From a virus (lineage: Duplodnaviria; Caudoviricetes), in the IMG/VR virus record IMGVR_UViG_3300013285_000002, positions 1 through 53,428 of that record: a stretch of 53,428 nucleotides of DNA; one strand, written 5' to 3'. A program made the translations under genes and the position numbers. Within the stretch, counting starts at the first letter, position 1. Each line of letters opens with the position of its first letter. Shown piece after piece: positions 1,605-53,428 of the stretch. The notes under the pieces are model-generated. The model worked only from the letters and a program-made list of their open reading frames with translations. It ran no database searches and was not told the DNA's origin.

Positions 1605-1618
1605 ACAAAGATCCTTGT
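1605..1618. promoter_or_regulatory. Putative repressor operator ACAAagatccTTGT upstream of the late operon
   Basis: Perfect ACAA-N6-TTGT, the same form as sites at 36979 and 37962 flanking cI. Confidence 0.5.
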
Positions 1619-1960
1619 TATTAGACGGATCAGTCATGTAGAGTGCATACCAAGATAGAGCATCTGTCCCTAATTGATGATTCTCCAGCGGATAGTGAGA
1701 CGGATAACTACCGCAGTCATGGGCCTTCTTAGTCTTTCTGGGGCTGACATGGCCGAATAGCCCACGACACGGGCTGCCTTATCAAGAGGAATGGGCACTA
1801 ACAGCTATCGGCTCGCCGTTGGAAGAACACGGACAAGTAGGCCCGACTGTAAAACAGTGCTCATCTCTGTTGGTTAAGCACTTTGTGCAGGGCTGGGGGT
1901 TCCCGGCTGCCAACTCCTTCTACTGAAAAACAAAATTCGGCTTCGCCGATCTCTCAAATC

Positions 1961-11285: not shown

Positions 11286-11723
11286 ATGAGTGCAATGTCA
11301 GACTATCTTGAGAACAAGATCATCGACCAACTGTTTCGCGGCCAAGCTTATGCTTTTCCGTCCACGCTTTACATTGGCCTGCTAACTGCCGTCCCTTCGG
11401 ATACTGGCGGTGGTACTGAAGTTTCTGGTGGTGGCTATGCACGCGCATCATCTGCTGCTGGCTTGGCTACCTTTGCTGGTACACAAGGTGTCGGTACTAC
11501 CGCCGCATCTACTGGCAACACTGGCACAACTTCAAACAATGCGTCGATCACCTTTGTGACTCCGACTGCAAGTTGGGGTGCTGTAACTTCATTCGGTATC
11601 TACGATACGGCTACTGGCGGAAACTTGTTGTTCTACGGTACGCTCAGTATCAGCAAAACCATCAACCAAGGCGACACGGTAACGTTCCCTGCCGCTTCTC
11701 TGTCTGTCCAAATCGACAACTAA
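11286..11723 (+). CDS. Tail fibre/collar-like structural protein
   Basis: MSDYLEN...YIGLLTA.P.D.G...EVSGGGYAR...WG.VT.FGIYD...GGNLLFYG motif typical of phage structural proteins. Confidence 0.75.
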   Translation: MSAMSDYLENKIIDQLFRGQAYAFPSTLYIGLLTAVPSDTGGGTEVSGGGYARASSAAGLATFAGTQGVGTTAASTGNTGTTSNNASITFVTPTASWGAVTSFGIYDTATGGNLLFYGTLSISKTINQGDTVTFPAASLSVQIDN

Positions 11724-31863: not shown

Positions 31864-32340
31864 AAAACTGGTGAAGACTGATGAAAACTGGTGAGGATTG
31901 GAGTGTGCCTAATTTGTGTCCAAACTTTTATAGCGGCTTGTAGTTATATGTGTTTTAAGCACGCTTTTGGGCACAAGAAGATCGGGCAGATCGTGCGCTC
32001 AAGTTACTGATTTCTCAGGGATTTTTACTTCTTGTACTGCTGCATATGTGTGACTTGAAATCTGGTGTCAGTGCTTGTAAACAAAGGGCTAGCGGGGCGG
32101 TGTGTACGAATCTGTGTTTTACCCCAAAAGCGCTACAATTTACAGTCTTGCACTGGGTGTTTTGCAGGTAAGGAAGAGTGGCAGAGTGGTCGATTGCAAT
32201 AGTCTTGAAAACTATCGAAGGGTTAAACCTTCCGTGAGTTCGAATCTCACCTCTTCCGCCAAACTTGCATCTCATCCTACCAACCGTAGATGCTGACCAG
32301 CTTCAGTCTGCTGTCCACGTTGTCCCAATACCTGACCCAT
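31864..32340. promoter_or_regulatory. Putative attP region (10-bp tandem repeats, arm-type sites, IHF-like site)
   Basis: Four 10-bp units at 31864-31903; TGTGCCTAAT/TGTGTCCAAA and an inverted TTTGGGCACA; CAAGTTACTGATT at 32000-32012; adjacent to the integrase 3' end. Confidence 0.6.
32172..32261 (+). tRNA. tRNA-Ser (anticodon TGA), complete with encoded CCA
   Basis: Acceptor stem GGAAGAG/CTCTTCC + G + CCA; anticodon arm ATAGT-CTTGAAA-ACTAT; long variable arm; GTTCGAATC T-loop. Confidence 0.95.
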
Positions 32341-33339
32341 CTTTTCATCCACAATTTCCGCATGGCTACGCACAGATTCAGTCGAGTGGTGTGCGTATTT
32401 GCGCACCATGCTCGGTGTTTCCCATGCACCCAATGCCATGAGCGCATTGTCTGGGACTCCGGCTTGCGCGAGAGTTGAGGCCCATGTGTGACGCATGTCA
32501 TGCCAACGGAAATTCTCAATGCCTGCCTTCTCTTTGGCTGCCTTCCACGTATCACTGCTGATGCACTTTCTAGGTCGCCCTTGGTAAGTGAACACCGATA
32601 CCTGATGCTTGCCAACCTGTCGCCGTAGGATGTCAACCGCAGCTTGAGGGAGGGGTATCCCAAACTCTTGCCCGTTCTTCATCTTGTCAGCGCCAATCAC
32701 AATAATGCGATTGACTAAATCCACTTCACTCCAATTGAGCTTGATGACGTTGGCTTGCCGAAGACCTGTTGCAAAGGAGAATGCCGCCATGTCTTGCATG
32801 TGGTGAGGCAGTGCTTCTAGCAATCGGGAAATCTCGTCGGGCTTTAAGAAGCGAACCCGACACTTCGGTTCCTTGTTCATGAAGAACGTGGGTGCAGTTT
32901 CAATCAACTGGTACTTCCGATGAGCCATCCTCATGACCGCACGCAGCACTGCCAAATATCTGTTCAGTGTTGCGCCAGAGAGTGAGCCATCATCCTTCGT
33001 TTTGATTGTCTTTAGAACAAGGTCTTGTGTAATCTGGCGAACCATCTTTGACTTGAACTCATCCTTCCACCAATCGAGCAACAGTTCATATCCGGCAATC
33101 GTGTCTGCTTTTAAATCCTTGCTCTTCTCTGTTAAGAACAAGTCAGCCACTTCAGAAAAAGGCTTGTCTTGCTTGACGCCCAATCGGGCTTCTGACCATA
33201 GACCGGCCTTCATCTTGTCTTGATACTCTGTTGCTAACTTCTTGTTCTCTGTGCCAGTAGATTCACGGCATAGAGTACCGTCAGGTCTGGTGAACTTCAT
33301 GTGCCAGATGGGTGACGTACCTCGTTTATATAGCGACAT
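32272..33339 (-). CDS. int: Tyrosine integrase
   Basis: TGLR, HDMRHTWAS, LGAW, KYAH catalytic motifs; N-terminal arm-binding region. Confidence 0.95.
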   Translation of the reverse strand: MSLYKRGTSPIWHMKFTRPDGTLCRESTGTENKKLATEYQDKMKAGLWSEARLGVKQDKPFSEVADLFLTEKSKDLKADTIAGYELLLDWWKDEFKSKMVRQITQDLVLKTIKTKDDGSLSGATLNRYLAVLRAVMRMAHRKYQLIETAPTFFMNKEPKCRVRFLKPDEISRLLEALPHHMQDMAAFSFATGLRQANVIKLNWSEVDLVNRIIVIGADKMKNGQEFGIPLPQAAVDILRRQVGKHQVSVFTYQGRPRKCISSDTWKAAKEKAGIENFRWHDMRHTWASTLAQAGVPDNALMALGAWETPSMVRKYAHHSTESVRSHAEIVDEKMGQVLGQRGQQTEAGQHLRLVG

Positions 33340-42376: not shown

Positions 42377-42917
42377 ACTATCACTGTCCCTATCCGCACG
42401 CCGATGTAAGCATGATGATTGCTTCGAGCCTGCTGGAATGTTCGGAGTCTGTCCCGGCCATGAGCAAGAGGGCATCAACCGACACTTCGCTAAGTCGCTT
42501 GGGCGCGGGGTGGTAGAGATAGCTGCACCACTTTGCTTCAAGGGTCACGTCGAATGGAAGCATTACGTTGTTGCTGCAACTCTTTCTGTTCCTCACAAGT
42601 CACGCGCAGAGACGGATCATGCGGCTAGGCGAATGGACTACTGCAAGGACTGCACGATTAAGTTCAAGCAGGAGATGATGAAGAACGATACGTGCTCTCA
42701 TCCTGAAACTGTTTTCATTCTGTCGGACATCCATGCTGGTGATCTAACTGGTGTGTCTATCACGCATGAGGGCAGGACTGCACCTTGGGAAAAGGCTGTG
42801 ATGGGAATGTCAGGGCCGGTCGTCATGTTGCCAAGTGCAGATGTAATCAACGAACAGTTAACCATCATCTCAACGCCGAAGAAGCGTGGGCCAAAACCAA
42901 AGAAACACAATGTTTGA
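42369..42917 (+). CDS. Hypothetical Cys-containing protein
   Basis: 182 aa, YCKDC...C.HPET; start codon uncertain. Confidence 0.6.
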   Translation: MVELSLSLSARRCKHDDCFEPAGMFGVCPGHEQEGINRHFAKSLGRGVVEIAAPLCFKGHVEWKHYVVAATLSVPHKSRAETDHAARRMDYCKDCTIKFKQEMMKNDTCSHPETVFILSDIHAGDLTGVSITHEGRTAPWEKAVMGMSGPVVMLPSADVINEQLTIISTPKKRGPKPKKHNV

Positions 42918-43323
42918 AATGTTATTTCCTTATCCAATTAGCTCGAACCGATATTGGCGAATGTTTCGGAACAGAATTGTTCGAAGCTCTGCTGCGAGGG
43001 AGTACAAGGATGTCGTAACAGATATTGCTCAGCAGTCTGGCAATCAGGAGTTCAAGGGGTGTGTGAAGGTTGACCTTCGCTTACATCCAGAGCGCCCGAA
43101 GGACTGGGAGAAGCGTGCCAAGAAAGATTCCCGCTGGGGTCTTGGTGTGCGGCGTGTTGACCTAGACAATGCACTCAAGGTTGCACTTGATGCACTGCAA
43201 GGAATTGCCTACGAGAATGACCGTCAAATTACTGACATCAGAATCAGGCTCGGGCTGCCCATTGAGGGCGGCGGTCTGTCGGTGATTGTGAGTGCCGACG
43301 AATACTGGGAAACACCAACATGA
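42910..43323 (+). CDS. rusA: RusA-like Holliday junction resolvase
   Basis: PYPISSNRYWR, DLDNALKVALDALQG.AYENDRQI motifs. Confidence 0.9.
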   Translation: MFEMLFPYPISSNRYWRMFRNRIVRSSAAREYKDVVTDIAQQSGNQEFKGCVKVDLRLHPERPKDWEKRAKKDSRWGLGVRRVDLDNALKVALDALQGIAYENDRQITDIRIRLGLPIEGGGLSVIVSADEYWETPT

Positions 43324-43817
43324 ACTTTCATTCAGTAGAGCAAGCGCTAAAGTTTGCATCAAACGTCAGTGACAGGGCTGAGTACGGCAAGTCAGATTTA
43401 ATGGCTGTCCGTGGGACAAGCACTGAGTCACTGACACCGATGGACATGCACGCACAGGCTGCAATGATTCAAAGCATGGTGAACAGGATGCCTCCGATGG
43501 AGAGGGATTCTGTTGTTGCTCAGTACGGTAGGGGTAAGGAGAGGTCGGACGCCATACGCAGTCTAGCTGAGTACCTGATGCCGCATGTATCGGGCATGGT
43601 TCCAAGTAAGCATGTGGTGATGCTGGTTGTTTGTCATTGGGCTACTAAGCGCCCAGCCATCCGAGCTATTGCAGATGACCGGGCGGTGAGCTATCGAAAG
43701 GTCTGTTCATGGAGGACAACAATCCTCCGAGCATGGATGCCGCTACAGATACGGGCGATCAGCCGGTTGCATGACCAGATGTTTCATGAGGGTGGATTTA
43801 GTTTGGATGAGTCGTAA
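43320..43817 (+). CDS. Putative late regulator (Q/sigma-like DNA-binding protein)
   Basis: Position after rusA; C-terminal HTH-like IRAIADDRAVSYRKV..W; followed by a strong promoter. Confidence 0.55.
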   Translation: MNFHSVEQALKFASNVSDRAEYGKSDLMAVRGTSTESLTPMDMHAQAAMIQSMVNRMPPMERDSVVAQYGRGKERSDAIRSLAEYLMPHVSGMVPSKHVVMLVVCHWATKRPAIRAIADDRAVSYRKVCSWRTTILRAWMPLQIRAISRLHDQMFHEGGFSLDES

Positions 43818-43835
43818 TATTTTTTCCTTTAGGGG

Positions 43836-43863
43836 TTGACGGATGCGCAACCAAGGATAGAAT
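43836..43863 (+). promoter_or_regulatory. pR'-like promoter TTGACG-N16-TAGAAT
   Basis: Near-consensus hexamers 18 nt after the stop of the Q-position gene. Confidence 0.7.
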
Positions 43864-43869
43864 TAAGTC

Positions 43870-44250
43870 ATCGAGTGTTACAGCACAAGACAAATCAACT
43901 GGCCTTGGCCTTTGCTTTCACCTAGAAATAGGGCGTGCTGTAACACGGAAAGTAAAGACCAAGGTCTTTTGCTTCCCAGTGTCAGGGCGCACATCGTTAC
44001 AGCACAAAGGGGTATGTCGTCCCAGCACCCAATGAAGCGATGCCGTACATGACCCCGACGGCTCGGCGTTTCTTAGCGACCGAACAAAACCAGCAAGCAA
44101 ACCGACGATACGCATGGCCCACGAACGGGCGCTGGACAATACGAATAAGACGTTCTGCGAGCAACAGACCCAAGTGAAAAACAAAATGGGTTGGTTGAAG
44201 ATTCCGTTAGGGGCATTCGCTAGGGATGTCGGGAGTCTCGGGGTCAGCTA
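43870..44250 (+). ncRNA. Candidate structured non-coding RNA
   Basis: No credible ORF; ~30-bp long-range helix 44050-44079 with 44217-44246 containing several G-U pairs; perfect 12-bp inverted repeat 43875-86/43935-46; further hairpins. Confidence 0.55.
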
Positions 44251-44257
44251 TGGGAAT

Positions 44258-44701
44258 TTAATTAACGTCTGCCACTGAACCATCACGGTAGTGCAGCTTA
44301 TTCCCGAACCTTGATGGAAGCTTGAGCGCATCATAAGCACCCGGCCTCACGCAGTTGTCACCAAGTTCACTACCTTTGTAGGTGGCTCGAATGAAAACCT
44401 CCTGAAGCTTTTCCTTGGGGCTGCGAACACAGATGGTTCCCTTTGCTGGTGGGCCATACACAAGGTTTGCATTTAACCCAATGTCAGTAATGCACCACGA
44501 GTCAGCGCCAACTTTGCGAACAACGCGCTGCTCTCCCATAGACTGAAGCACTTCACGAATCCTCGCTGCTGTAGTTGTAGTCCCAACGGCCCGACGCAAC
44601 TCAGCAACTGTCATCTCCTCGGCACAACCCGCAAGGATCGCCAACAGTTTGTGGTTCGCACTGTTCATCCGGTAGCCTAGGTTCAGTTCTTCGAATCGCA
44701 T
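44258..44701 (-). CDS. Winged-helix-like hypothetical protein
   Basis: MTVAELRRAV...WCITDIG; C-terminal RPGAYDALKLPSRFGN. Confidence 0.65.
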   Translation of the reverse strand: MRFEELNLGYRMNSANHKLLAILAGCAEEMTVAELRRAVGTTTTAARIREVLQSMGEQRVVRKVGADSWCITDIGLNANLVYGPPAKGTICVRSPKEKLQEVFIRATYKGSELGDNCVRPGAYDALKLPSRFGNKLHYRDGSVADVN

Positions 44702-44824
44702 GATGTTCCTTGTTTAATCTGTTGAGTTCTAAGCGCACCTCTTGACGTGCATTGGGTTTGGTTGCAAACCACTGGCTTAGCTTTTTATTATCGTCTTGGA
44801 GTAGGCCCGGAGGCCAACCCGTTA

Positions 44825-45235
44825 TCAGAAGTAATCCATGTCTCTGAGCAAGAGTCGAGGGAAAATCTCAATCTTTTTATCAATGATGGCCGCTTCACTG
44901 AGAGTATCGTGAACGCTCACCATCTTCATGCCTTTTCTAAGCCACATTTTTCCCTCTCTTGTGGTGCTTCTTGTGACTTTAATCCCATGATTTTTCAGGT
45001 ACACGGGGTCATGTCCAACATCGACCCAACTCTGGTAAAAACCAGACGGTTCAGCTAATAAAAGAATGTCCAAGTCGCCGGGAGTAGGACTGCCCTTGAT
45101 CGTGCTGCCAAAAACCCATGCCTTCTTGACCAAGAAGAATTCATCACTGCCCCTAGGTGTCGGTATCATTCCACCAACAGATACAAGTCGAGTATGTATT
45201 TCTTTGACGTGGTGAACAGCGGTATCAATTTTCAT
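44825..45235 (-). CDS. Minimal nucleotidyltransferase-like protein (Pol beta superfamily)
   Basis: AWVFGSTIKG....GDLDILL (hG[S]...DxD motif). Confidence 0.65.
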   Translation of the reverse strand: MKIDTAVHHVKEIHTRLVSVGGMIPTPRGSDEFFLVKKAWVFGSTIKGSPTPGDLDILLLAEPSGFYQSWVDVGHDPVYLKNHGIKVTRSTTREGKMWLRKGMKMVSVHDTLSEAAIIDKKIEIFPRLLLRDMDYF

Positions 45236-45357
45236 ATCTTTAGCCTCTCTTCGAGATACTCAATGCGTGCAACCATGTAAGCAAGAAGCGTGAGTAAGGT
45301 GTCTTTGTCTATGTTGTCACCGGAGTAGGAGTGCAACAGGTTAATCATTCTTTTCAT
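45232..45357 (-). CDS. Small hypothetical protein (41 aa)
   Basis: Manual translation MKRMINLLHSY...IEYLEERLKI*; ATGA overlaps at both ends. Confidence 0.5.
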   Translation of the reverse strand: MKRMINLLHSYSGDNIDKDTLLTLLAYMVARIEYLEERLKI

Positions 45358-45548
45358 GTGTTCTTCTCCTTGAGCTTGGCTTCGATCATCTGAGGGAGTC
45401 CCTCATGAAATCCATCTGGGTCAATGCGAAACATCTCAGCCTCTGTCAGCCCTACCCATGTGCGTTTCTGCGCTTCTAATTGGGCAATTCGTACTTGATG
45501 TAACTGTTGTATTTCAGCGCAGATAGCAAGGTGTTTTGCTGGACTCAT
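45354..45548 (-). CDS. Hypothetical protein
   Basis: RTWVGLTEAE...IEAKLKEKNT motif, common in small phage early proteins. Confidence 0.7.
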   Translation of the reverse strand: MSPAKHLAICAEIQQLHQVRIAQLEAQKRTWVGLTEAEMFRIDPDGFHEGLPQMIEAKLKEKNT

Positions 45549-46192
45549 GTCTTATCTCCTATGCCGAGGTCGGCTTCAATAGCTCGGGCAAATTCGATTC
45601 CGGCGCTAGTCACTGGCACCGAAATGGCTATGTGCTTTCTTGACACTGACATCCAGATTTCACCAATCCGATCATCCGTCAGCGGCTGGCGCTTTGGTGG
45701 TGATGTGTAGAGCTTGGTTCCCACGTCGAGCAAGTCAATTGGCTGGGTGTACTGCACGTACTTTCTGCCATGTTCTGGGCTGTGCATCACTTCGGCCACG
45801 GACTCCTGCTCTGGCTGTACTGGCTGCGCGATGGTTTGACGTTCATCCAAGTTCGCATCGGTATAAAAACCTTCTGCTGGATGGCGTACTCCGGCATCAT
45901 CAAGAAAACTTGTAAAGTCGCTGATATGTTTTACTTGAAGCAGGCCACATACGTCAATGAGCAGCAACCCAGTACTAACTTCAAAATCATTGATCGGCCA
46001 CTCCCAGCCGCCAATATCGCGGCCAATGAAAGGTTGCGACAAGCTGTTGATGTAGGCCATATCAAGAACATCAGTCCTAATTTTTTGTTTGATGCTGGCT
46101 GGCTGTACTGGCTGCGCGATAGCATTGATGGCGTCGCCAGGGAAAGCCTTGTGAGGCAGTTCGGCGTTATCCGCTTCAATTCGTTCATTCAT
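45545..46192 (-). CDS. Modular hypothetical protein with duplicated IAQPVQP linker
   Basis: 215 aa; LYTSPP, PLTDD.I and FARAIEA modules. Confidence 0.7.
   Translation of the reverse strand: MNERIEADNAELPHKAFPGDAINAIAQPVQPASIKQKIRTDVLDMAYINSLSQPFIGRDIGGWEWPINDFEVSTGLLLIDVCGLLQVKHISDFTSFLDDAGVRHPAEGFYTDANLDERQTIAQPVQPEQESVAEVMHSPEHGRKYVQYTQPIDLLDVGTKLYTSPPKRQPLTDDRIGEIWMSVSRKHIAISVPVTSAGIEFARAIEADLGIGDKT
45811..46120. repeat. 22-bp direct repeat CTGGCTGTACTGGCTGCGCGAT (45811-45832 and 46099-46120)
   Basis: Exact match, 288 bp apart and in frame. Confidence 0.85.
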
Positions 46193-46335
46193 TTCAATAC
46201 CTCCGCTTCAAGCACTTCCATGCTCTGTGTAATTTTCTCGTACAGATAATCTGGAAGGGTATGGGTACTTGCAAAAGACCATGACTCAAGAGCGCTCAGC
46301 AACTTGATGACCTCCAAGACTTGTTCCTTTGTCAT
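46189..46335 (-). CDS. Small hypothetical protein (48 aa)
   Basis: Manual translation MTKEQVLEVIKLLSALESW...EAEVLK*; coupled at both ends. Confidence 0.6.
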   Translation of the reverse strand: MTKEQVLEVIKLLSALESWSFASTHTLPDYLYEKITQSMEVLEAEVLK

Positions 46336-46520
46336 TTAGATTCTCCGGTTGCTTGTTTGTCTATGGCCCCTGCTCCGAACCAAATGTTCCAAGGCTGTTT
46401 GATCTCCTTGACTTGGCACTTGTTGCACTTGTTGCAGAAGCGTGACTGCACTTTTGTGTAGTCGCTCATGGAATCGAATGGTTTTGACCAGACACCCCAG
46501 TTGTGGAAACAAAACTTCAT
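46332..46520 (-). CDS. Small zinc-ribbon-like protein
   Basis: FCFHNWG.W...Q.RFCNKCNK. Confidence 0.65.
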   Translation of the reverse strand: MKFCFHNWGVWSKPFDSMSDYTKVQSRFCNKCNKCQVKEIKQPWNIWFGAGAIDKQATGESK

Positions 46521-46756
46521 GATTGGCTCCTAGCTCTGATGGCTTCAGCGCAATGCCTTGGCCCCAGTGCAGGCCATACACCAACTTCTTCTTCACACAA
46601 CTTGGCACAAGCCTCACGCTCATGCGAGGCTACAAGGTAGGCGAAGTACTCGTCACGGTATTGCTTCCAGTACTGGGGATGCGCCGCAGGATTCCACTCG
46701 CAGTTTGCATAGGTATCTGCTTCGTGCCCCATCCCGATAATGTCGTCTTCAGTCAT
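46517..46756 (-). CDS. Hypothetical protein
   Basis: FA.LVA..EREACAK.C...CAEAIRAR motif. Confidence 0.7.
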   Translation of the reverse strand: MTEDDIIGMGHEADTYANCEWNPAAHPQYWKQYRDEYFAYLVASHEREACAKLCEEEVGVWPALGPRHCAEAIRARSQS

Positions 46757-46935
46757 TCTGTTTCTCCTCTTTTTGACTGCCATTTTTTCCAAACTCGATT
46801 GCGTTCCGCAGTAGCCACAATCTTGGCAAACTGTTTAAGTTCGTGGGTCAGATGCCCTTGGTGTGGCGGCATGACGAAGCCAGCATCTACATGAAACCCA
46901 GCTTCTTTTGCTGCCTTGATGAAGTCTTCATTCAT
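46753..46935 (-). CDS. Hypothetical protein
   Basis: AKEAGF...L.QFA..V...ER motif. Confidence 0.65.
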   Translation of the reverse strand: MNEDFIKAAKEAGFHVDAGFVMPPHQGHLTHELKQFAKIVATAERNRVWKKWQSKRGETE

Positions 46936-46943
46936 TCTGTTTC

Positions 46944-47414
46944 TCAGGTTGCTTTGCGAGCAACAGGCCAGCCCAGCTTGCACAGATCAGCGGCTACATC
47001 AATGAGTGCAGGAAGGTTCTTCGTAGGCTGAGCTTCTGTTGGGTAGTAGCGTGCAAACTCTGGCATCCGGTCGCTGAGTTGCTTGAGTGTGCTGCATGAG
47101 TTAACTGCGCTGGCCAGTTTGCTCTTCGCTAAGTTGCGTAAATCCTGAGCATCACGCCACGGCTTTAGTACATCATGAACATCAGCATCACCGCAGATAA
47201 ACATGCAGTGCATATCAAGACCGTAGTGATAGCCGGAGATGTGCTGGTTGAGCAGAGCTTTTGGATGCGTCTTATAAAGCTTGCGAGCCTCTGGCGACAT
47301 GGCTTTTACAAGAGCCTCTTGCATCTTTACCTTTTCCTTGGGAGTGTCGATAGTTGGGAGGTCGTTAAGGATGCTGCTGACGATGGCTTGCTTTGTGTAT
47401 GTAGTGAGTTTCAT
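46944..47414 (-). CDS. Nmad5-like phage protein
   Basis: MKLT...K.AIV..I, S.STLKQL...MPEF..Y.P pattern. Confidence 0.6.
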   Translation of the reverse strand: MKLTTYTKQAIVSSILNDLPTIDTPKEKVKMQEALVKAMSPEARKLYKTHPKALLNQHISGYHYGLDMHCMFICGDADVHDVLKPWRDAQDLRNLAKSKLASAVNSCSTLKQLSDRMPEFARYYPTEAQPTKNLPALIDVAADLCKLGWPVARKAT

Positions 47415-47462
47415 TTGATGCTTTCGATTTGTTTCTGATCCGTTGATTCTGTTGTGGTCTGT

Positions 47463-47684
47463 TCAGTTATCGACTCCTTCAACTTCAAGTAAGCGCTTCT
47501 TCATGCGCTCCATTAACCAGAGCACGTCGCCGCCATCGGCATAGGTTGATGCGAAGTACTCAGTACCATCTAGGTCATACCCAAGAATGACGAAACCCTT
47601 GAGCTTGCCCTTGGTGTTCTCAAGTGTTGTGTCTGGGTCTAGGTTGAGTCGTGTGATGCCACGGAACTGAATGACGTTACTCAC
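47463..47684 (-). CDS. Hypothetical protein
   Basis: GTG start; NVIQF.G.T.L.LDPD..L...VILGYD.DG.EYFAS...GG..LWL.ER. Confidence 0.7.
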   Translation of the reverse strand: MSNVIQFRGITRLNLDPDTTLENTKGKLKGFVILGYDLDGTEYFASTYADGGDVLWLMERMKKRLLEVEGVDN

Positions 47685-47871
47685 TTTGCTTCTCCTCGCC
47701 AAGCCCAAGCCACTTAGTGCGCGGCTCTCTTGCATGTTTGATGTAGAAGTGAATGAGGTAGTTAAAGATTTGAACGTAGCTCATACGGATACCAGTTTCC
47801 TTGAGGATGAACTCTCGGATGTGGTCTACGTCTGTGTCGATGTTGAATGTGATGCGCTTAGTTGTTTTCAT
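47677..47871 (-). CDS. Small DNA-binding-like hypothetical protein
   Basis: 64 aa, KRIT N-terminal strand followed by two helices (RHH-like). Confidence 0.55.
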   Translation of the reverse strand: MKTTKRITFNIDTDVDHIREFILKETGIRMSYVQIFNYLIHFYIKHAREPRTKWLGLGEEKQSE

Positions 47872-47883
47872 TTTTTTCCCTGC

Positions 47884-48150
47884 TTAAATGTTGTCCCAGT
47901 TGGGCGTTCTCCACCCATCGTCATCTATTGGTGGCTCGTACTCACTTGTCTCATGCTTAGAAGATTCAAGATCATCAATATCAAAAAACCGGCAGTGCCC
48001 ACCCCTGTGAGCAGTCTTAATTTGCACGGAGTATGGGTCTAGGTACTCATCAATCAACCAGAACAAATCCCTTTTGTTTTGGCCGCATACCATTCCGATG
48101 TAGCCCGTTGGCTTTCCATCATCCATCTGCCTAAAGTTGTAAGCAATCAT
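47884..48150 (-). CDS. Hypothetical protein
   Basis: LFWLIDEY.DP; RBS aagga. Confidence 0.65.
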   Translation of the reverse strand: MIAYNFRQMDDGKPTGYIGMVCGQNKRDLFWLIDEYLDPYSVQIKTAHRGGHCRFFDIDDLESSKHETSEYEPPIDDDGWRTPNWDNI

Positions 48151-48163
48151 GTTGGATTCCTTG

Positions 48164-48406
48164 TTAGCGTCGAGCAATGAACCCAGTTGGTACATCGTTC
48201 TCGCTGGTTAATTTCTCGTACTCTGCAACTGCTAGCTTGTGGTCATCAAAACAAAATCTGTTTTCATGGCCCCATCTGTTACAGCCAAGGTGAATAGCTG
48301 TTGTGTACAGAAGCTTTCCGAGTGCAGCAATAGACCCATCCTCAAGTACCCTGACTCGCTGATACCCACCGCTGAACATAATTTCATCGGCCAATGAGTC
48401 AGTCAT
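48164..48406 (-). CDS. Hypothetical protein
   Basis: L.YTTAI..G....G.E.RFCF...P.GF motif. Confidence 0.65.
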   Translation of the reverse strand: MTDSLADEIMFSGGYQRVRVLEDGSIAALGKLLYTTAIHLGCNRWGHENRFCFDDHKLAVAEYEKLTSENDVPTGFIARR

Positions 48407-48659
48407 AGATACCACCGCAAGCCTCATCCATGTAGTGCATGTACAGAGCGGCTACGTTGTCGAACTCAAGGCAGTTGTACAGATAGACATAGGTCATCTT
48501 GCCCAGTCGCCCAGTCCTCATGTTGCGATCTGTCCTCTGTACTAGCTTGATTCCCGTTAATGAGTTAACGTAGTATGTGACGGTGTATTTTGCAAAGCTC
48601 ATGTGCATTACGTATTCCAACTTGAAGTCGGTGAACTCGTCGTATGTGTATTGCTTCAT
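48399..48659 (-). CDS. Hypothetical protein
   Basis: 86 aa, coupled to its neighbours. Confidence 0.6.
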   Translation of the reverse strand: MKQYTYDEFTDFKLEYVMHMSFAKYTVTYYVNSLTGIKLVQRTDRNMRTGRLGKMTYVYLYNCLEFDNVAALYMHYMDEACGGIYD

Positions 48660-48862
48660 GCCGCACCCTCATCATGGGTTAATGTTTCATTCAGACGTGC
48701 TGCATATCGGCCTAGGTTTTCAAGCACCTTCGGGTCAAGGGCAACAACTTTGTTCTCATGGTGATTGACAGCCAGCCAGACCTGAAACCCATCGAATGAG
48801 GCATACACCCCATCGCCTAGGTAGGTATCTGTTGCAGTGAATGGATGCTTAGGATTCGTCAT
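48656..48862 (-). CDS. Hypothetical protein
   Basis: YLGDGVYASFDG..VWL...VALDP.V motif. Confidence 0.7.
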   Translation of the reverse strand: MTNPKHPFTATDTYLGDGVYASFDGFQVWLAVNHHENKVVALDPKVLENLGRYAARLNETLTHDEGAA

Positions 48863-49055
48863 GTGTTTCTTTCTTTGGTTTGAGTTGAGTTCGAGGGATG
48901 CACCACTGCTCACGGCCACCACCGCAATCAATGAGAAACGCACCGCTGATACGTCCCGCCTTGAGTCTTTGGTGTATGGCCTGTCGAGTCACGCCTTCAA
49001 TCTCCGCAGCATGTGATGCAGTGACGTAACCACGTTCAACTATCAGGAGAGTCAC
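48849..49055 (-). CDS. HTH DNA-binding protein
   Basis: AAEIEGVTRQAIHQRLKAGRI.GA...W.IP. Confidence 0.7.
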   Translation of the reverse strand: MTLLIVERGYVTASHAAEIEGVTRQAIHQRLKAGRISGAFLIDCGGGREQWCIPRTQLKPKKETHDES

Positions 49056-49786
49056 TTGTCACCCATCTTCTTGAGTGCATCGCCAAGGCCATTCTTTTCC
49101 ATGATGTCCTTCGCGCCTTTTTCTTCTTGGTCAAAGATGCTTTCAACAATCTTCATGATTGACTTCGCACCAGCCTCATCCTCTCGGCTGATACCAGCAT
49201 GACAAGCCATGATTTGAATCGTCTGTGCTGCCATGTCGCAGTCAATGCTGACCAGCATGTCGGCTACCTTCTCGGGCATCACCTCTGCATCAATGCAGGC
49301 ATTGATTAACATGCTCATTAACTGACTACGCTTACGGACAATCAACGCAATCTTCACTGTGTCGGCGAACAGATCGCCCTTGACGCTTCGGACGGTATCA
49401 AGAATGTCCTTCGCACCAGCAAAGCGTCCTAAGTCTTCTTCTCCCTGCTCTTTGGCAGACTCACGGAACAGATCGAGGATGATTTGAATTTTCTGTTGAG
49501 CCGCAACACTAAAGCCCCCAACATGCCAAGATGTAATCTTCTTTGTCTCTATTCCATCGTCACCAAGGTAGCACTTGCCGTCCTTCCAGTTGTACAGGGT
49601 AGCAATTAAAGAGTTGCCCTTGACCTCATCAAATTCAATCGACCACTGTGCATCCACCTTGTACCCATCAGCCTCGTGAGGTAAGCCGAACAGAGACACA
49701 AGCTCATCGTATGTAGCAGTGACTACGCCTTGCAGTGAAGAACCGTTTGAGTTGATTTCTTTTTGATTATGTGTGGTGAAGTTCAT
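49052..49786 (-). CDS. Hypothetical protein
   Basis: SLQG...TY..L...FG.P...KVDAQW...ATLYNWK...WHVGG N-terminal domain. Confidence 0.75.
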   Translation of the reverse strand: MNFTTHNQKEINSNGSSLQGVVTATYDELVSLFGLPHEADGYKVDAQWSIEFDEVKGNSLIATLYNWKDGKCYLGDDGIETKKITSWHVGGFSVAAQQKIQIILDLFRESAKEQGEEDLGRFAGAKDILDTVRSVKGDLFADTVKIALIVRKRSQLMSMLINACIDAEVMPEKVADMLVSIDCDMAAQTIQIMACHAGISREDEAGAKSIMKIVESIFDQEEKGAKDIMEKNGLGDALKKMGDK

Positions 49787-49802
49787 TTGTAATTTCCTTT
49801 TT

Positions 49803-50195
49803 TTATTCAGTGATGTGGACAATCTGTCCGTTGTGATCCATCCAGATAATTTCTTGGTCGTTGACCCTTATTGGGGTAACAAAGCTGATCTTGTCGATTA
49901 ACTCTTGCAGGGTGATCTTCGGAGCAACACTCTCGCCTTTATCGTCACAGCCCATGACTAATGCTTTTCCAGCTAACGGTGTCGGGTAGTCGGCATGTTT
50001 AAAGAATGATTGGCTGGGCTTGAATAGACCTTCGTCATCAACGAACAGACCATCGTTATGCTTGTTGATACTGACAACATCAAACGCATCGCAATCAATG
50101 TGCTTGTAAATATCTGTGTAGTGACCTTGATACGTCACCTCTGTGATCGTCTCATCGTGTGGGTTGATAAGGAATGTGGTGAATGGTGTAGTCAT
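49803..50195 (-). CDS. DUF3846-like protein
   Basis: I..HIDC..F..V...LFVDDEGL...PLAG..L.MG.D..GE. Confidence 0.7.
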   Translation of the reverse strand: MTTPFTTFLINPHDETITEVTYQGHYTDIYKHIDCDAFDVVSINKHNDGLFVDDEGLFKPSQSFFKHADYPTPLAGKALVMGCDDKGESVAPKITLQELIDKISFVTPIRVNDQEIIWMDHNGQIVHITE

Positions 50196-50207
50196 GTGTG
50201 TCTCCAG

Positions 50208-50300
50208 TTATTCAAAGAAGCCGCTAGGCAGGGTGAGGGCAAGAAGGATGATGACGAATGCAAGGACTGTCAGCCAGTCAACAATGAACCAGCGTTTCAT
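50208..50300 (-). CDS. Small membrane peptide (30 aa)
   Basis: Manual translation MKRWFIVDWLTVLAFVIILLALTLPSGFFE*. Confidence 0.5.
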   Translation of the reverse strand: MKRWFIVDWLTVLAFVIILLALTLPSGFFE

Positions 50301-50551
50301 AAGATTGACTCTTGATTTTTTGGGGCTTGCTTGGTAACTGCCTTGGCAGGTAGCCCAACTGCCCTACGAACACCGGCCATAGCCGACTTCGCATCATTCG
50401 TCCCAACCTTTTCGATAGTTGCGATTACTTGGGCAAATAAGGCCAGCGTTGCGGCGGGAATCTTTTCTCCACTTGGCTTCATTGTTTTGACAACGTGGTT
50501 GATTAGGCTAACCACGCCCTGATCTGTTTCCAGTTGGTAATCTGTTGTCAT
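50297..50551 (-). CDS. Hypothetical protein
   Basis: 84 aa within operon. Confidence 0.6.
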   Translation of the reverse strand: MTTDYQLETDQGVVSLINHVVKTMKPSGEKIPAATLALFAQVIATIEKVGTNDAKSAMAGVRRAVGLPAKAVTKQAPKNQESIL

Positions 50552-50635
50552 CTGTTTACTTTCTCGTGAGTAGGTCGAACGCCACTACCAGAATGGCAAT
50601 GACATAGGTGATGCAGAGGGATAGGTCGAGCTTGC

Positions 50636-50992
50636 TCATAGGCCGTTCGGAACTTCAACGTCATCACCCATATTTGAGGCAACGTAACATCGCATAGCTG
50701 CAATCAGGGGTGTTGGGCCAGCCCCATACGCCACCCCTTGAATGAAACCGGCCCATTCTTTAGATGTGCTCAAGTAAGCGCATTCGATGAGTTCGCGCTC
50801 AATGATCGGGCCACCTTGTGCCCAGTCTGTCGATGGCAGGTAGCTTTGTGCCCAACCCCTAGACAGGGCGCGGTCTTTGCCGTCTATCGTTATCCAGTAG
50901 GTAGCAACGCTGTCGTACCAAAATCCCGTACCTCCTTCACAATTAGCCACCGCCCAATCAAGTTGAGTCCCTATCAGTTCAGATGTTTTCAT
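50636..50992 (-). CDS. DUF2591 / NinX-like protein
   Basis: LDWAVA, PSTDWAQGGPIIE, GPTPLIAAMRCYVAS..G..VEVP motifs. Confidence 0.85.
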   Translation of the reverse strand: MKTSELIGTQLDWAVANCEGGTGFWYDSVATYWITIDGKDRALSRGWAQSYLPSTDWAQGGPIIERELIECAYLSTSKEWAGFIQGVAYGAGPTPLIAAMRCYVASNMGDDVEVPNGL

Positions 50993-51004
50993 TTGAGTAC
51001 TCCC

Positions 51005-51196
51005 TTAAAGGGTTAGGCCAGCCGCACCAACTTTGTTGCCGTTGATGTCACGGAGGATGAATATTTCCTCATCCAAAAAGCCATGCTGGTTTGACTGAAT
51101 CTTTGCAGTGAGTGCAGTGAGTAACCTCATTACCTCGTATGAAGCTTCGCTGTCGTCGTCAATATGATCGAGTGAGAATGTAATCATTACTTGCAT
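51005..51196 (-). CDS. Hypothetical protein
   Basis: 63 aa, LRDINGNKVG motif; RBS aagga. Confidence 0.7.
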   Translation of the reverse strand: MQVMITFSLDHIDDDSEASYEVMRLLTALTAKIQSNQHGFLDEEIFILRDINGNKVGAAGLTL

Positions 51197-51209
51197 GTTG
51201 TTTCCTTTG

Positions 51210-52103
51210 TTATGCAGCTTCAAGCACTGGATTTTCAATTGCAGCCAGCGTCTCTTCAATCCATGCTTCGGCGCTTTCTTTATCAAGCACAGGCTTTTGG
51301 ATGATGATGTTTTGCGGAATGGGTAGCATCTTTGCGGCTTCGTAGATGTACTGCTGTCTCGGCGTCCCCATGCTTTCATTGGCACGTCTTCCGAACTGGT
51401 CAGCAGCGAAAGCAATCCCGACGAACATGCTTGTCCGAAAGAATCCACCCATGCCGGTCAACGCGGCTAGCTTGTCCATGTCCAGAGGAGAATCCTCGGC
51501 TTTGATCTCGACAAACTGTCCGACATTGAGCTTTTCACCCATGTTGTCAGCGTCCTTTGAGCCAGCCGCCCCGTATATAGCGACGTTGTATCCGCTGTCA
51601 GTCAGTGACTGAGCCAGCTTCAGAGCAGCAGCACCACGCCAGAACAATTGTGAGGACTTGACGTTGCAGGATGCACACAGGTCAATCACGACGCAGACTG
51701 TTCGAACTGTTGCTCTTGATTGGCGGCGAGTTTTTGTCCATGCTCGACTCATGTCGCCACGGTAGACCGCTTGCATGTCCACCTCATCACCCTGATCGGC
51801 CTTGACGCGGCGTCGGCGCACTGACGTTGGGTTACTCAATTCACGAATGGCAACTTCGTCGATCTTTTTTGCACCGTCAGCCCAGCCGTGAGTCAACCGC
51901 TCGTTGAACTCCTTGAAAGTCTTGACGCCAAGCCATTCAGGGTCATCGGCGTAGTGACTCATCTCAGAGCACCATTGAGCAGAGTTACTTGCACGGTCAG
52001 GGTCAAGCCACAGATTAGCGGCATGAGGCAGTGCAGCAGGCTCAGCCACTGAATCCCATAGGATTGCAGTCAGCTTTGTCTTTTTGTCGTGTTCAATAAT
52101 CAC
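51210..52103 (-). CDS. VWA-like partner of the AAA+ ATPase
   Basis: GDEVDMQA, VVIDLCASC (degenerate MIDAS), RGAAAL.L...L...GY.V.I, FFR motifs; coupled to the AAA gene. Confidence 0.65.
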   Translation of the reverse strand: MIIEHDKKTKLTAILWDSVAEPAALPHAANLWLDPDRASNSAQWCSEMSHYADDPEWLGVKTFKEFNERLTHGWADGAKKIDEVAIRELSNPTSVRRRRVKADQGDEVDMQAVYRGDMSRAWTKTRRQSRATVRTVCVVIDLCASCNVKSSQLFWRGAAALKLAQSLTDSGYNVAIYGAAGSKDADNMGEKLNVGQFVEIKAEDSPLDMDKLAALTGMGGFFRTSMFVGIAFAADQFGRRANESMGTPRQQYIYEAAKMLPIPQNIIIQKPVLDKESAEAWIEETLAAIENPVLEAA

Positions 52104-52104
52104 G

Positions 52105-53241
52105 TTATGCCTCGACTTTCATTTTTTCGTCAGCTTTCCAGCCGATAAAGTAGGTTGACTTGATCTGTTCCAAAGTACGGCCAGCGGCCATCAACTTCGT
52201 TGCATCTAGCAGGAATCGAGTGCTCATCACTCGGCTTAGGCGGCTTGCAATGATCTTTTTACGCACCGCCCAGCCCCATGCCAGTATTTCGGTATGAATC
52301 ACAGATTTTTCAAATCGTGTGTCGTAATCGAGCAGCACAGTACCGGCACGGAATCGGTCAAGCGTTGCCTCATCAAGTCGTTCACGGCCTGCATAAGTCA
52401 TGTTTGCACCAGTACCGAAGGTATTTGCAGCGCCAAGGCAAACAAAATCAACGTGACGTTTAACTTTTGTCCGTCCTTTGCGTTGAGGCAGGTAGAAACT
52501 ACCGTTTGCAAGGGCTTGATTAACGAATAGCAAAGTATTCGGGTCAGCAGCGTCCATTTCATCGAACAAAAAGACACCGCCGTTTTCGTACATCGTTACG
52601 AAGTCTGAAGGTGTGTATTCAAATGCCCCGCCGTCAGCAGGCAGCATCCAGCCAGTCAATGCAGACTCAGACATACCGGCAGTGCATGAGATTGACGCAA
52701 ACTCACGGCCAAGAGCTTCGGCAACCTGAATTGCAAGGTGAGTTTTTCCGCAACCGGCAGGGCCGACAAGCAAGATATTCAAGCCGCAACCAGCCGATAC
52801 CAAAACCTCCTCAAATTCAGCCCTTACATGGCCTTCGGCCTTGTGTGTCGTACCGTCAGGACGTTGCACCACAATCGTCGTAATGGGTGACTTGTCAATT
52901 GCCGCCTTGACTTCGGCAGCCACAATTTCCCGCACCTTGTTTTCGTCAACTGCACCGCCTAACAGTGACCGAAGGGCAGACAATGCCGCCGCATCACCAC
53001 TGTCAACAGACTGTTTAACAACCTTTGGTTGAACATCGGTGACGTCAGGCATATCGAACTCAACGTGGGCCAAGGCTTGTTCAATCTTGAATGAGTCGTA
53101 CATAGATAGCAAACGCTCAACACAATCGACGCGCTTTGTTCGTTCGTGGTCAAAGCCAACGGAACCGCCGTTCAAATTCTTGAATATTTCGAGTAGCGAA
53201 GTCTTCGACAGATTTAGTAACTTTTCACGTAGTTCGAGCAT
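52105..53241 (-). CDS. MoxR/CbbQ/CobS-like AAA+ ATPase
   Basis: GPAGCGKT Walker A, FLFDEMD Walker B, AANTFG sensor, LDEATLDRF Arg finger. Confidence 0.9.
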   Translation of the reverse strand: MLELREKLLNLSKTSLLEIFKNLNGGSVGFDHERTKRVDCVERLLSMYDSFKIEQALAHVEFDMPDVTDVQPKVVKQSVDSGDAAALSALRSLLGGAVDENKVREIVAAEVKAAIDKSPITTIVVQRPDGTTHKAEGHVRAEFEEVLVSAGCGLNILLVGPAGCGKTHLAIQVAEALGREFASISCTAGMSESALTGWMLPADGGAFEYTPSDFVTMYENGGVFLFDEMDAADPNTLLFVNQALANGSFYLPQRKGRTKVKRHVDFVCLGAANTFGTGANMTYAGRERLDEATLDRFRAGTVLLDYDTRFEKSVIHTEILAWGWAVRKKIIASRLSRVMSTRFLLDATKLMAAGRTLEQIKSTYFIGWKADEKMKVEA

Positions 53242-53305: not shown

Positions 53306-53428
53306 ACGTTGTCAGTCGGCAAGCCTTGCAGGACTTTCGATTGATGACGCGATGTAGTCCGGGAATCCCTGTCTTCATTGAAAAGCCAGACACCTTTGAC
53401 GAAAGCGGCAACCGGAAAATGCTTTCCG
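53306..53428. repeat. Terminal direct repeat, right copy
   Basis: Identical to 1-123. Confidence 0.95.

Follow-up and report, generated by a model that had tools for sequence, protein, structure and literature searches.

The 440-nt gap at 43818-44257 of a complete IMG/VR virus record sits exactly at the meeting point of a rightward early operon and a leftward block of genes, and it raises the question of what is encoded there, an initial annotation having proposed a promoter-driven, highly structured non-coding RNA. The window analysed is the whole virus record (53,428 nt), in which the assembly overlaps itself by an exact 123-bp terminal repeat (positions 1-123 = 53306-53428), the genome being circular or terminally redundant, with a unique length of 53,305 bp. 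All sampled words of the stretch were found in one sequencing run, labelled freshwater metagenome, which may be the source sample of the phage; a protein-anchored scan of genome contigs for the gene upstream of the gap gave no relative. The reading that we tentatively favour is that the element in the gap is a non-coding "RNA moron" that has its own promoter and a terminator/antiterminator gate (features in Table 1).

Table 1. Positions of the features of the element, of its neighbouring genes and of the late promoter candidate (window coordinates)
Feature	Position	Strand	Description
Candidate late promoter cassette	1615-1785	+	Promoter, pause word, hairpin; ahead of packaging genes
AlpA-family (Q-like) processive antiterminator homologue, 165 aa	43320..43817	+	Last gene of the rightward early operon
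Sigma-70-type promoter (predicted), -35 TTGACG, 16-nt spacer, -10 TAGAAT	43836..43863	+	10/12 consensus matches
Word copy 1, GTGTTACAGCAC	43875..43886	+	5' single-stranded leader; 5' arm of helix P1
Hairpin T, then TTTTGCTT	43901..43974	+	Terminator-like; stem of ~19 bp at 43901-43966, -32.6 kcal/mol
Word copy 2, GTGCTGTAACAC	43935..43946	reverse complement	Apical region of T; can form 12 bp with copy 1 or 10 bp with copy 3
Linker	43976..44039	+	No significant structure (z +0.69 for 43976-44048); carries word copy 3
Word copy 3, GTTACAGCACAA	43996..44007	+	In linker
3' domain	44041..44255	+	34-pair closing helix around ~137 nt of A-rich interior
A/U-rich tail, ATTTAATTA	44256..44264	+	Right module edge, overlapping the stop codon of the converging gene; read from the sequence
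Converging gene, 147 aa	44258..44701	-	No family match; kept in the converging block of relatives

Gene setting, promoter and coding content of the gap

At the end of the rightward early operon stand a DUF968/HNH-like gene, a gene of 182 aa without a family match, RusA (42886-43323) and a 165-aa gene, and from 44258 to 53241 every credible gene lies on the - strand, converging on this operon. The initial annotation had spoken of a gene in the "Q position" upstream of the gap, and profile and fold comparisons bore this out. Pfam and PHROGs gave no match to the 165-aa protein; a profile of 18 relatives compared with the PDB returned a single match, AlpA of Pseudomonas aeruginosa (7xya_G; E 9.2e-7 over positions 3-158 of 164, and E 0.019 with a 5-sequence profile), and a Foldseek search with the AlphaFold (AF2) model (pLDDT 85) placed 7xyb_G and 7xya_G at the top (E 3.6e-4, TM 0.65-0.69; next match E 0.26). 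Judged by profile and modelled fold, the product is an AlpA-family antiterminator homologue.

The leftward block is headed by genes for an AAA_5 (CobS/MoxR-like) ATPase and a DUF7192 protein (52105-53241 and 51210-52103, both -) and also carries NinX, DUF3846 and Nmad5-domain genes. Adjoining the 147-aa gene, 44825-45235 (-) encodes a 136-aa protein with a very weak match to the MntA antitoxin (E 0.11) and a G-S...D-L-D motif that we take to be the one typical of small nucleotidyltransferases. Elsewhere in the window, a tRNA-Ser(TGA) gene (32172-32261, +) directly adjoins a 355-aa - strand ORF (32272-33339), and the two may form an attachment/integration module.

The annotated promoter, P43836, was recovered as described, beginning 18 nt after the stop codon of the AlpA-like gene, with a start predicted from its spacing at ~43870. 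Sites with 10/12 matches are not enriched genome-wide (5 seen against 6.8 expected from Markov resamples) and would be expected by chance at ~0.03 per 440 nt per strand; the match therefore counts only through its location, facing into the gap.

The gap has no credible ORF, in agreement with the initial annotation. Its longest ORFs have 88 aa (-) and 54 aa (+), and by codon usage all seven gap ORFs had log-odds below zero (-0.30 to -0.02), the reference, in-frame windows from 25 long phage genes, having 0.219 +/- 0.108. A homologue search with the 88-aa ORF gave none, and no ORF remnant in the gap has a homologue. Nor did a search of Rfam 15 place the element in a known RNA class, as had been expected, with no family at or above its gathering threshold there and only a tRNA elsewhere in the window; a relaxed search (E up to 10, 43600-44500) gave four matches, led by Phe_leader at 22.6 bits (gathering threshold 55, E 0.36). 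Leader-peptide attenuation, to which this match and a 16-codon GTG ORF with two Phe codons might have pointed, was rejected on the sub-threshold score and on a ribosome-binding site not being seen by eye. Other candidates, for which no supporting feature was seen, were set aside: a retron msr/msd, there being no reverse transcriptase close by; toxin-antitoxin RNAs of type I or type III, for want of hydrophobic peptides and tandem repeats; a CrcZ-like A-rich sponge, given a single exact AAnAAnAA word; and HK022 put RNA and 6S RNA. Neither the promoter nor the 3' domain scored above bulk in likeness to other sites in the phage, the late leader included, and on those phage-wide scores two resemblances noted by eye, one involving a GACGGAT word and the other a GCCCACGA hairpin, were discarded.

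Folding of two modules and the alternative helix P1

RNAfold gave -135.9 kcal/mol for the + strand of 43866-44257 (z -2.94), with none of 100 shuffles as good, as the initial annotation would have predicted; the - strand gave z -0.95, and 16 of its 100 shuffles did as well. That annotation had further held that the G-U pairs of the long helix work only for + strand RNA. The 3' domain (44040-44257) gave z -3.33 on the + strand and -1.12 on the -, and the 5' module (43870-43975) z -4.35 and -3.11, respectively, so that the strand bias of folding is limited to the 3' part while the 5' module folds well on both strands. For the + strand values of the two modules (z -3.3 to -4.35), none of 200 shuffles was as good as the native sequence. 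The proposal of one discrete ~390-nt RNA was not supported: because a terminator-like hairpin with its U-tract splits off ~100 nt at the 5' end, and an unstructured linker lies between the parts, the element probably consists of two modules (~100 nt at the 5' end and ~215 nt at the 3' end) and not of one continuous 390-nt RNA.

The hairpin in question, T, lies ~100 nt after the predicted start and begins at ~+32. Together with TTTTGCTT it is predicted to be a terminator-like site; it is absent from the list of the terminator scan, its loop exceeding the 8-nt limit of that scan, and a U-rich tail, read from the sequence, follows it on the - strand as well.

The 5' module also carries two of the three copies of a repeated word. 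GTTACAGCAC is present at 43877 (+), 43935 (-) and 43996 (+), with complementarity over 12 nt between copies 1 and 2 and over 10 nt between copies 2 and 3, and a word triple of this kind, two direct and one inverted, arose in only 1 of 2000 dinucleotide shuffles. The duplex of copies 1 and 2, P1, has a predicted energy of -21.6 kcal/mol, and the fold in which it is forced (-45.3 kcal/mol) differs by 2.5 kcal/mol from the fold with T (-47.8 kcal/mol); once P1 is formed, the A-rich stretch just before the U-tract becomes the pairing partner of that tract. P1 and T share no nucleotides and their 3' arms are separated by one base, and we infer from the geometry of the resulting pseudoknot that they cannot both be full helices at once. 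Mutually exclusive terminator-like and antiterminator helices, as in an attenuator, are thus predicted. When prefixes of the transcript were folded, P1 was the minimum free energy structure (MFE) for all those ending at 43941-43961, T took over from 43965, once the whole of its 3' arm was out, and the two tied at 43977. At equilibrium in the full transcript the pair probability of T was 0.9 and that of P1 0.08; any switching would therefore be kinetic or factor-dependent, and the case for a switch rests on the prefix folds.

Upstream of T, 43870-43900 is largely unpaired in the MFE except for a 4-bp mini-hairpin, so that the predicted layout is that of an sRNA, with its own promoter, a terminator with a U tail, a length within 50-300 nt and an accessible seed. 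A duplex scan of the phage genome for targets of the 5' stretch gave nothing above background, and only self-matches stood out. A fourth exact copy of the 10-nt word lies at 11578-11587 on the - strand, inside a structural gene, where the flanks add no pairing; late mRNA from this site would carry the complement of the 5' word. We estimate ~0.1 copies by chance, and the copy is about what chance allows. A reading of the triple word as DNA operators for a dimeric repressor is less likely, since the three copies agree at non-palindromic positions too, copy 2 being a precise reverse complement of the kind that pairing in RNA calls for.

In the 3' domain, the long helix with G-U pairs that had been annotated was confirmed and extended. 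In the MFE of 44040-44257 it pairs 44041-44079 with 44217-44255 (17 GC, 11 AU and 6 GU pairs), with a mean pair probability of 0.88, and the six G-U pairs become A-C on the - strand. The interior is poorly defined, and of the small stems proposed there the ACCCA/TGGGT stem (44168-72 / 44187-91; pair probability 0.87-1.0) held, forming the one firm hairpin, at 44168-44191; the GCCC/GGGC stem (0.34, with a rival partner at 44211 at ~0.6) and the CCAGC/GCTGG stem (0.28) were weak, and the TCTG/CAGA stem was not formed (0.0). For the roles suggested earlier, as decoy or as antitermination element, we found no evidence; the 19-bp hairpin with its U-tract, the triple word, the AlpA identity of the upstream gene and the insertion status described below go beyond the initial annotation.

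Distribution among relatives and in metagenomes

Protein-anchored scans located relatives of the AlpA-like gene on 6 viral and 20 metagenome contigs. Twenty-four of these loci, some of them near-duplicates, extend at least 370 nt past the gene (all 6 viral and 18 of the 20 metagenome loci, the other two ending at the gene), and BLAST found no part of the element at any of the 24. No comparable gap is seen among the 21 closest relatives, whose converging ORFs run up to or into the stop of the AlpA-like gene. The 147-aa protein has no family match, and a pattern search of viral contigs gave no locus for it; tblastn of the relatives' loci found diverged homologues of it at 17 of them (29-49% identity). 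Since this gene is conserved in the relatives' converging block, it lies outside the insertion, and the insert is just the ORF-less 440 nt. On comparison of the sequences, the 440-nt element is an insertion, by prediction self-promoted, between genes that are adjacent in relatives.

These loci bear on a reading in which the element would be a passive buffer between converging operons, with T as a bidirectional terminator, the 34-pair helix as an RNase III or stability site like lambda sib, and the promoter fortuitous or weak; action as a terminator or RNase III site had been named in the initial annotation itself as an outcome that would refute it. The element does lie precisely where the two transcription units meet, T folds on both strands with a U-rich tail on each, the helix with its 34 pairs is of sufficient length for RNase III, and chance alone should place promoter matches as good as this one somewhere in the genome. 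The 21 closest relatives, however, manage without any buffer between their abutting or overlapping ORFs, the + strand-biased 3' domain would serve only rightward transcripts already past T, and the triple word and the P1 alternative are left unexplained, and we regard the buffer as rather unlikely.

The full element was found in one complete genome only, in searches that covered viral, metagenome and genome contigs, isolated phages and E. coli. In viral contigs, a two-word pattern and a 16-mer of the 3' arm gave two loci each, all of them chance by BLAST, and a 20-mer of the A-rich linker gave none; a three-word pattern gave none in metagenome contigs and none in genome contigs. Isolated phages held no match to the element (BLAST), to the 6.3-kb region or to the 165-aa protein, and complete E. 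coli genomes held no BLAST match to the element.

Pieces of the element were nevertheless matched by short contigs (~151 nt) from four other freshwater runs; these are contigs of low depth, possibly from several phages and represented by summary tables only, for which the covered parts of X2-X5 were read. The pieces covering 43860-44010, 44009-44159 and 44151-44299 showed 6 differences in 151 nt, 5 in 151 and 5 in 149, respectively, and a piece covering 44142-44264 (X4 record 16) showed 9 in 123, the contig running on beyond 44264, a little past the converging gene's stop codon, unlike the window. Pieces of the flanking genes from run X4 differed more (24/151, 23/127 and 18/141). A diverged form (X2) keeps 44034-44138 and 44168-44204 at ~85%, with an insertion of one nucleotide behind 44107, a deletion of one at 44110 and an insertion of one behind 44124, the last falling in the loop of the candidate GCCC/GGGC hairpin; with this net +1 indel, the reading frame is therefore not kept. 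Taken by sequence, the metagenome pieces hint at constraint and modular inheritance of the element.

This indel falls inside two of the three ORFs from which a small protein might be made, namely a 45-aa ORF (44040-44177) and a 54-aa ORF (44114-44278), the third being the 16-codon GTG leader ORF (43875-43925). Open frames exist, then, and the stretch kept in the diverged relatives, 44034-44138, shares part of the 45-aa ORF; against a coding role stand the frame change itself, the negative codon-usage scores, no Shine-Dalgarno sequence being visible by eye before any of the three, and no peptide that, as we read them, resembles a membrane toxin. We consider a small protein very improbable.

Conservation of the pieces, equal to or greater than that of the flanking genes, likewise speaks against the element being a neutral leftover, a recombination scar or a decayed gene fragment with chance structure. 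Its occurrence in one complete genome only in the collections searched, the lack of an Rfam match and the ill-defined interior of the 3' domain would all suit such an origin, but no ORF remnant has a homologue, the two modules fold better than any of their 200 shuffles, and the word triple was seen in a single shuffle of 2000. A neutral leftover is in our view quite improbable, and the gated, non-coding unit remains the preferred reading.

Relation to known systems and a proposed mechanism

The neighbouring gene raises the alternative that we take as the main rival, a second AlpA-responsive cassette of late type, like lambda PR'-tR' or PalpB-tB of P. aeruginosa, in which an always-on promoter would be stopped at T, giving a short by-product RNA of the lambda 6S or StxS type, until the AlpA-like protein loads at the promoter and polymerase passes T into the 3' domain and further. 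In P. aeruginosa, as described in two reports (PMC7969949, PMC9371919), AlpA binds an element between the -35 and -10 of its target promoters, requires a -10-like pause word at -1 to +5, and then carries polymerase past a terminator beginning at +54. The gap resembles this in part: the upstream gene is an AlpA homologue whose stop codon lies 18 nt from the promoter, and a predicted intrinsic terminator follows shortly downstream, with its hairpin from ~+32, to be compared with +54 and +26 for the terminators of AlpA targets in P. aeruginosa (PMC7969949); AlpA can have more than one target, and short PR' transcripts can turn into working sRNAs, as in the case of StxS (PMC7547250). By eye, the P. 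aeruginosa AlpA motif is not present in the 16-nt spacer of P43836, where the orthologue's own site may differ, and the first transcribed bases offer a single -10-like word in which positions 2 and 6 are A and T, namely GAGTGT at 43873-78, a poor match (2/6). No + strand gene or operon lies downstream, the genes converging for ~9 kb, and neither promoter nor element travels with the antiterminator gene (0 of 24 relatives).

A better candidate target for the AlpA-like protein lies ~9.5 kb on, across the circular junction, at 1615-1785. This cassette has TTGTTA-18-TAGAGT (1615-1644), a -10-like CAAGAT (1651-1656) at the predicted start, and a hairpin (~1759-1775) followed by a U-rich run. The one relative whose sequence reaches that far conserves the cassette, with TAACAT as the pause word and with an A-U pair of the hairpin replaced by G-C in a compensatory change. 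From these sequence features it is likely the true target of the antiterminator. P43836 showed no significant likeness to the promoter candidate at 1615-1644 and is probably not a target of the AlpA-like protein, given that the insertion is absent from relatives, that no + strand gene follows it, that a better target exists at 1615-1785 and that its pause word is poor. We therefore consider the cassette reading unlikely.

Around this cassette, the leftward block is separated from the packaging genes by ~1.4 kb (530-1960) in which no ORF is convincing. This region has two exact 21-nt direct repeats, starting at 891 and 1069, as well as patches that a relative conserves, and could contain the packaging site or further RNA elements. 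On its - strand, a promoter-like TTGACA-18-TACATT (784-813), in a patch 83% conserved in a relative, is by its sequence likely the promoter of the leftward accessory block.

Other known systems share some features with the element. Lambda 6S RNA is a short PR' transcript. Among lambdoid phages, such transcripts (lambda 6S; StxS, PMC7547250) come from a constitutive-looking promoter right after the antiterminator gene with an intrinsic terminator nearby, and the ~100-nt product predicted here, with hairpin and U tail, is alike; unlike them, the element has no late genes on its strand, adds an internal antiterminator pairing and a 215-nt structured domain, lies beside an AlpA-type antiterminator and not a Q of lambda, 82 or 21, and is missing from relatives that keep the antiterminator gene. 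AlpA of P. aeruginosa with PalpB-tB and PPA0807 offers a homologous neighbour protein of the same fold and a promoter followed by a terminator within ~100 nt (PMC7969949, PMC9371919), whereas the element is without a recognisable AlpA binding element, a good pause word or an operon behind it. Attenuators and riboswitch platforms share the exclusive helices, one of them a terminator and the other forming first and sequestering the U-tract, but here no + strand gene with coding signal lies downstream, and there is no aptamer family and no convincing leader peptide. Phage morons are promoter-gene-terminator inserts, and the element is likewise a self-promoted unit between two genes that abut in relatives; it differs in being ORF-less and in having its terminator-like site at the 5' and not the 3' end. 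The lambda sib and RNase III retroregulation hairpins, finally, are long, nearly perfect RNA helices at the end of an operon, but the helix here closes a 137-nt multi-branched interior, and its strand bias points to a transcript of its own promoter. Phage promoter-terminator RNA units and terminator/antiterminator leaders are thus known, and what is new is their combination, in an ORF-less insert with an internal gate and a large 3' domain, beside an AlpA-type gene but not inherited with it.

For the self-promoted, gated RNA that we favour, the promoter match, the fold statistics with their strand bias, the exclusive pairings, the insertion status and the metagenome pieces are computed, and from these we infer transcription, termination at T, switching by P1 and a long form as the working product. 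RNA polymerase would start at ~43870 from the near-consensus sigma-70 promoter, and the first ~105 nt would act as a gate, composed of a largely unpaired 5' stretch of ~30 nt and then T as an intrinsic terminator. Before the 3' arm of T exists, the 12-nt word of the 5' stretch could pair with the apical loop of T to give P1, which, being nearly isoenergetic with T and pairing the U-tract away, would serve as a built-in antiterminator. A stop near 43970 would yield an sRNA-like RNA of ~100 nt, with a 5' single strand, terminator hairpin and U tail, and read-through would yield an RNA of ~395 nt carrying the ~215-nt multi-branched domain and ending in the A/U-rich tail at the stop of the converging gene. 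An occupant of the 5' word, whether a complementary RNA, a protein or the third word copy, would be expected to shift the choice towards stopping. A bolder version, which we think improbable, would make the element the first of a new phage riboregulator class, in which the 5' word senses a complementary RNA or a protein and the choice between P1 and T gates a 215-nt effector, itself a new functional phage RNA, for example a protein sponge or an anti-defence decoy, with the AlpA-like protein able to override the gate late in infection.

If transcribed as predicted, the element would be a natural case of a phage accessory insert with an RNA and not a protein as its cargo, and of a terminator/antiterminator switch with a non-coding product, where a gene would be usual, under its control. 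At ~450 bp it is small enough for synthesis and reporter work without culture of the phage. The conserved late promoter candidate, 9.5 kb from the AlpA-like gene, and the inserted promoter of the element lend themselves to direct comparison. The AlpA-type antiterminator, a system so far studied in Pseudomonas aeruginosa, is now also placed in an uncultured freshwater phage lineage.
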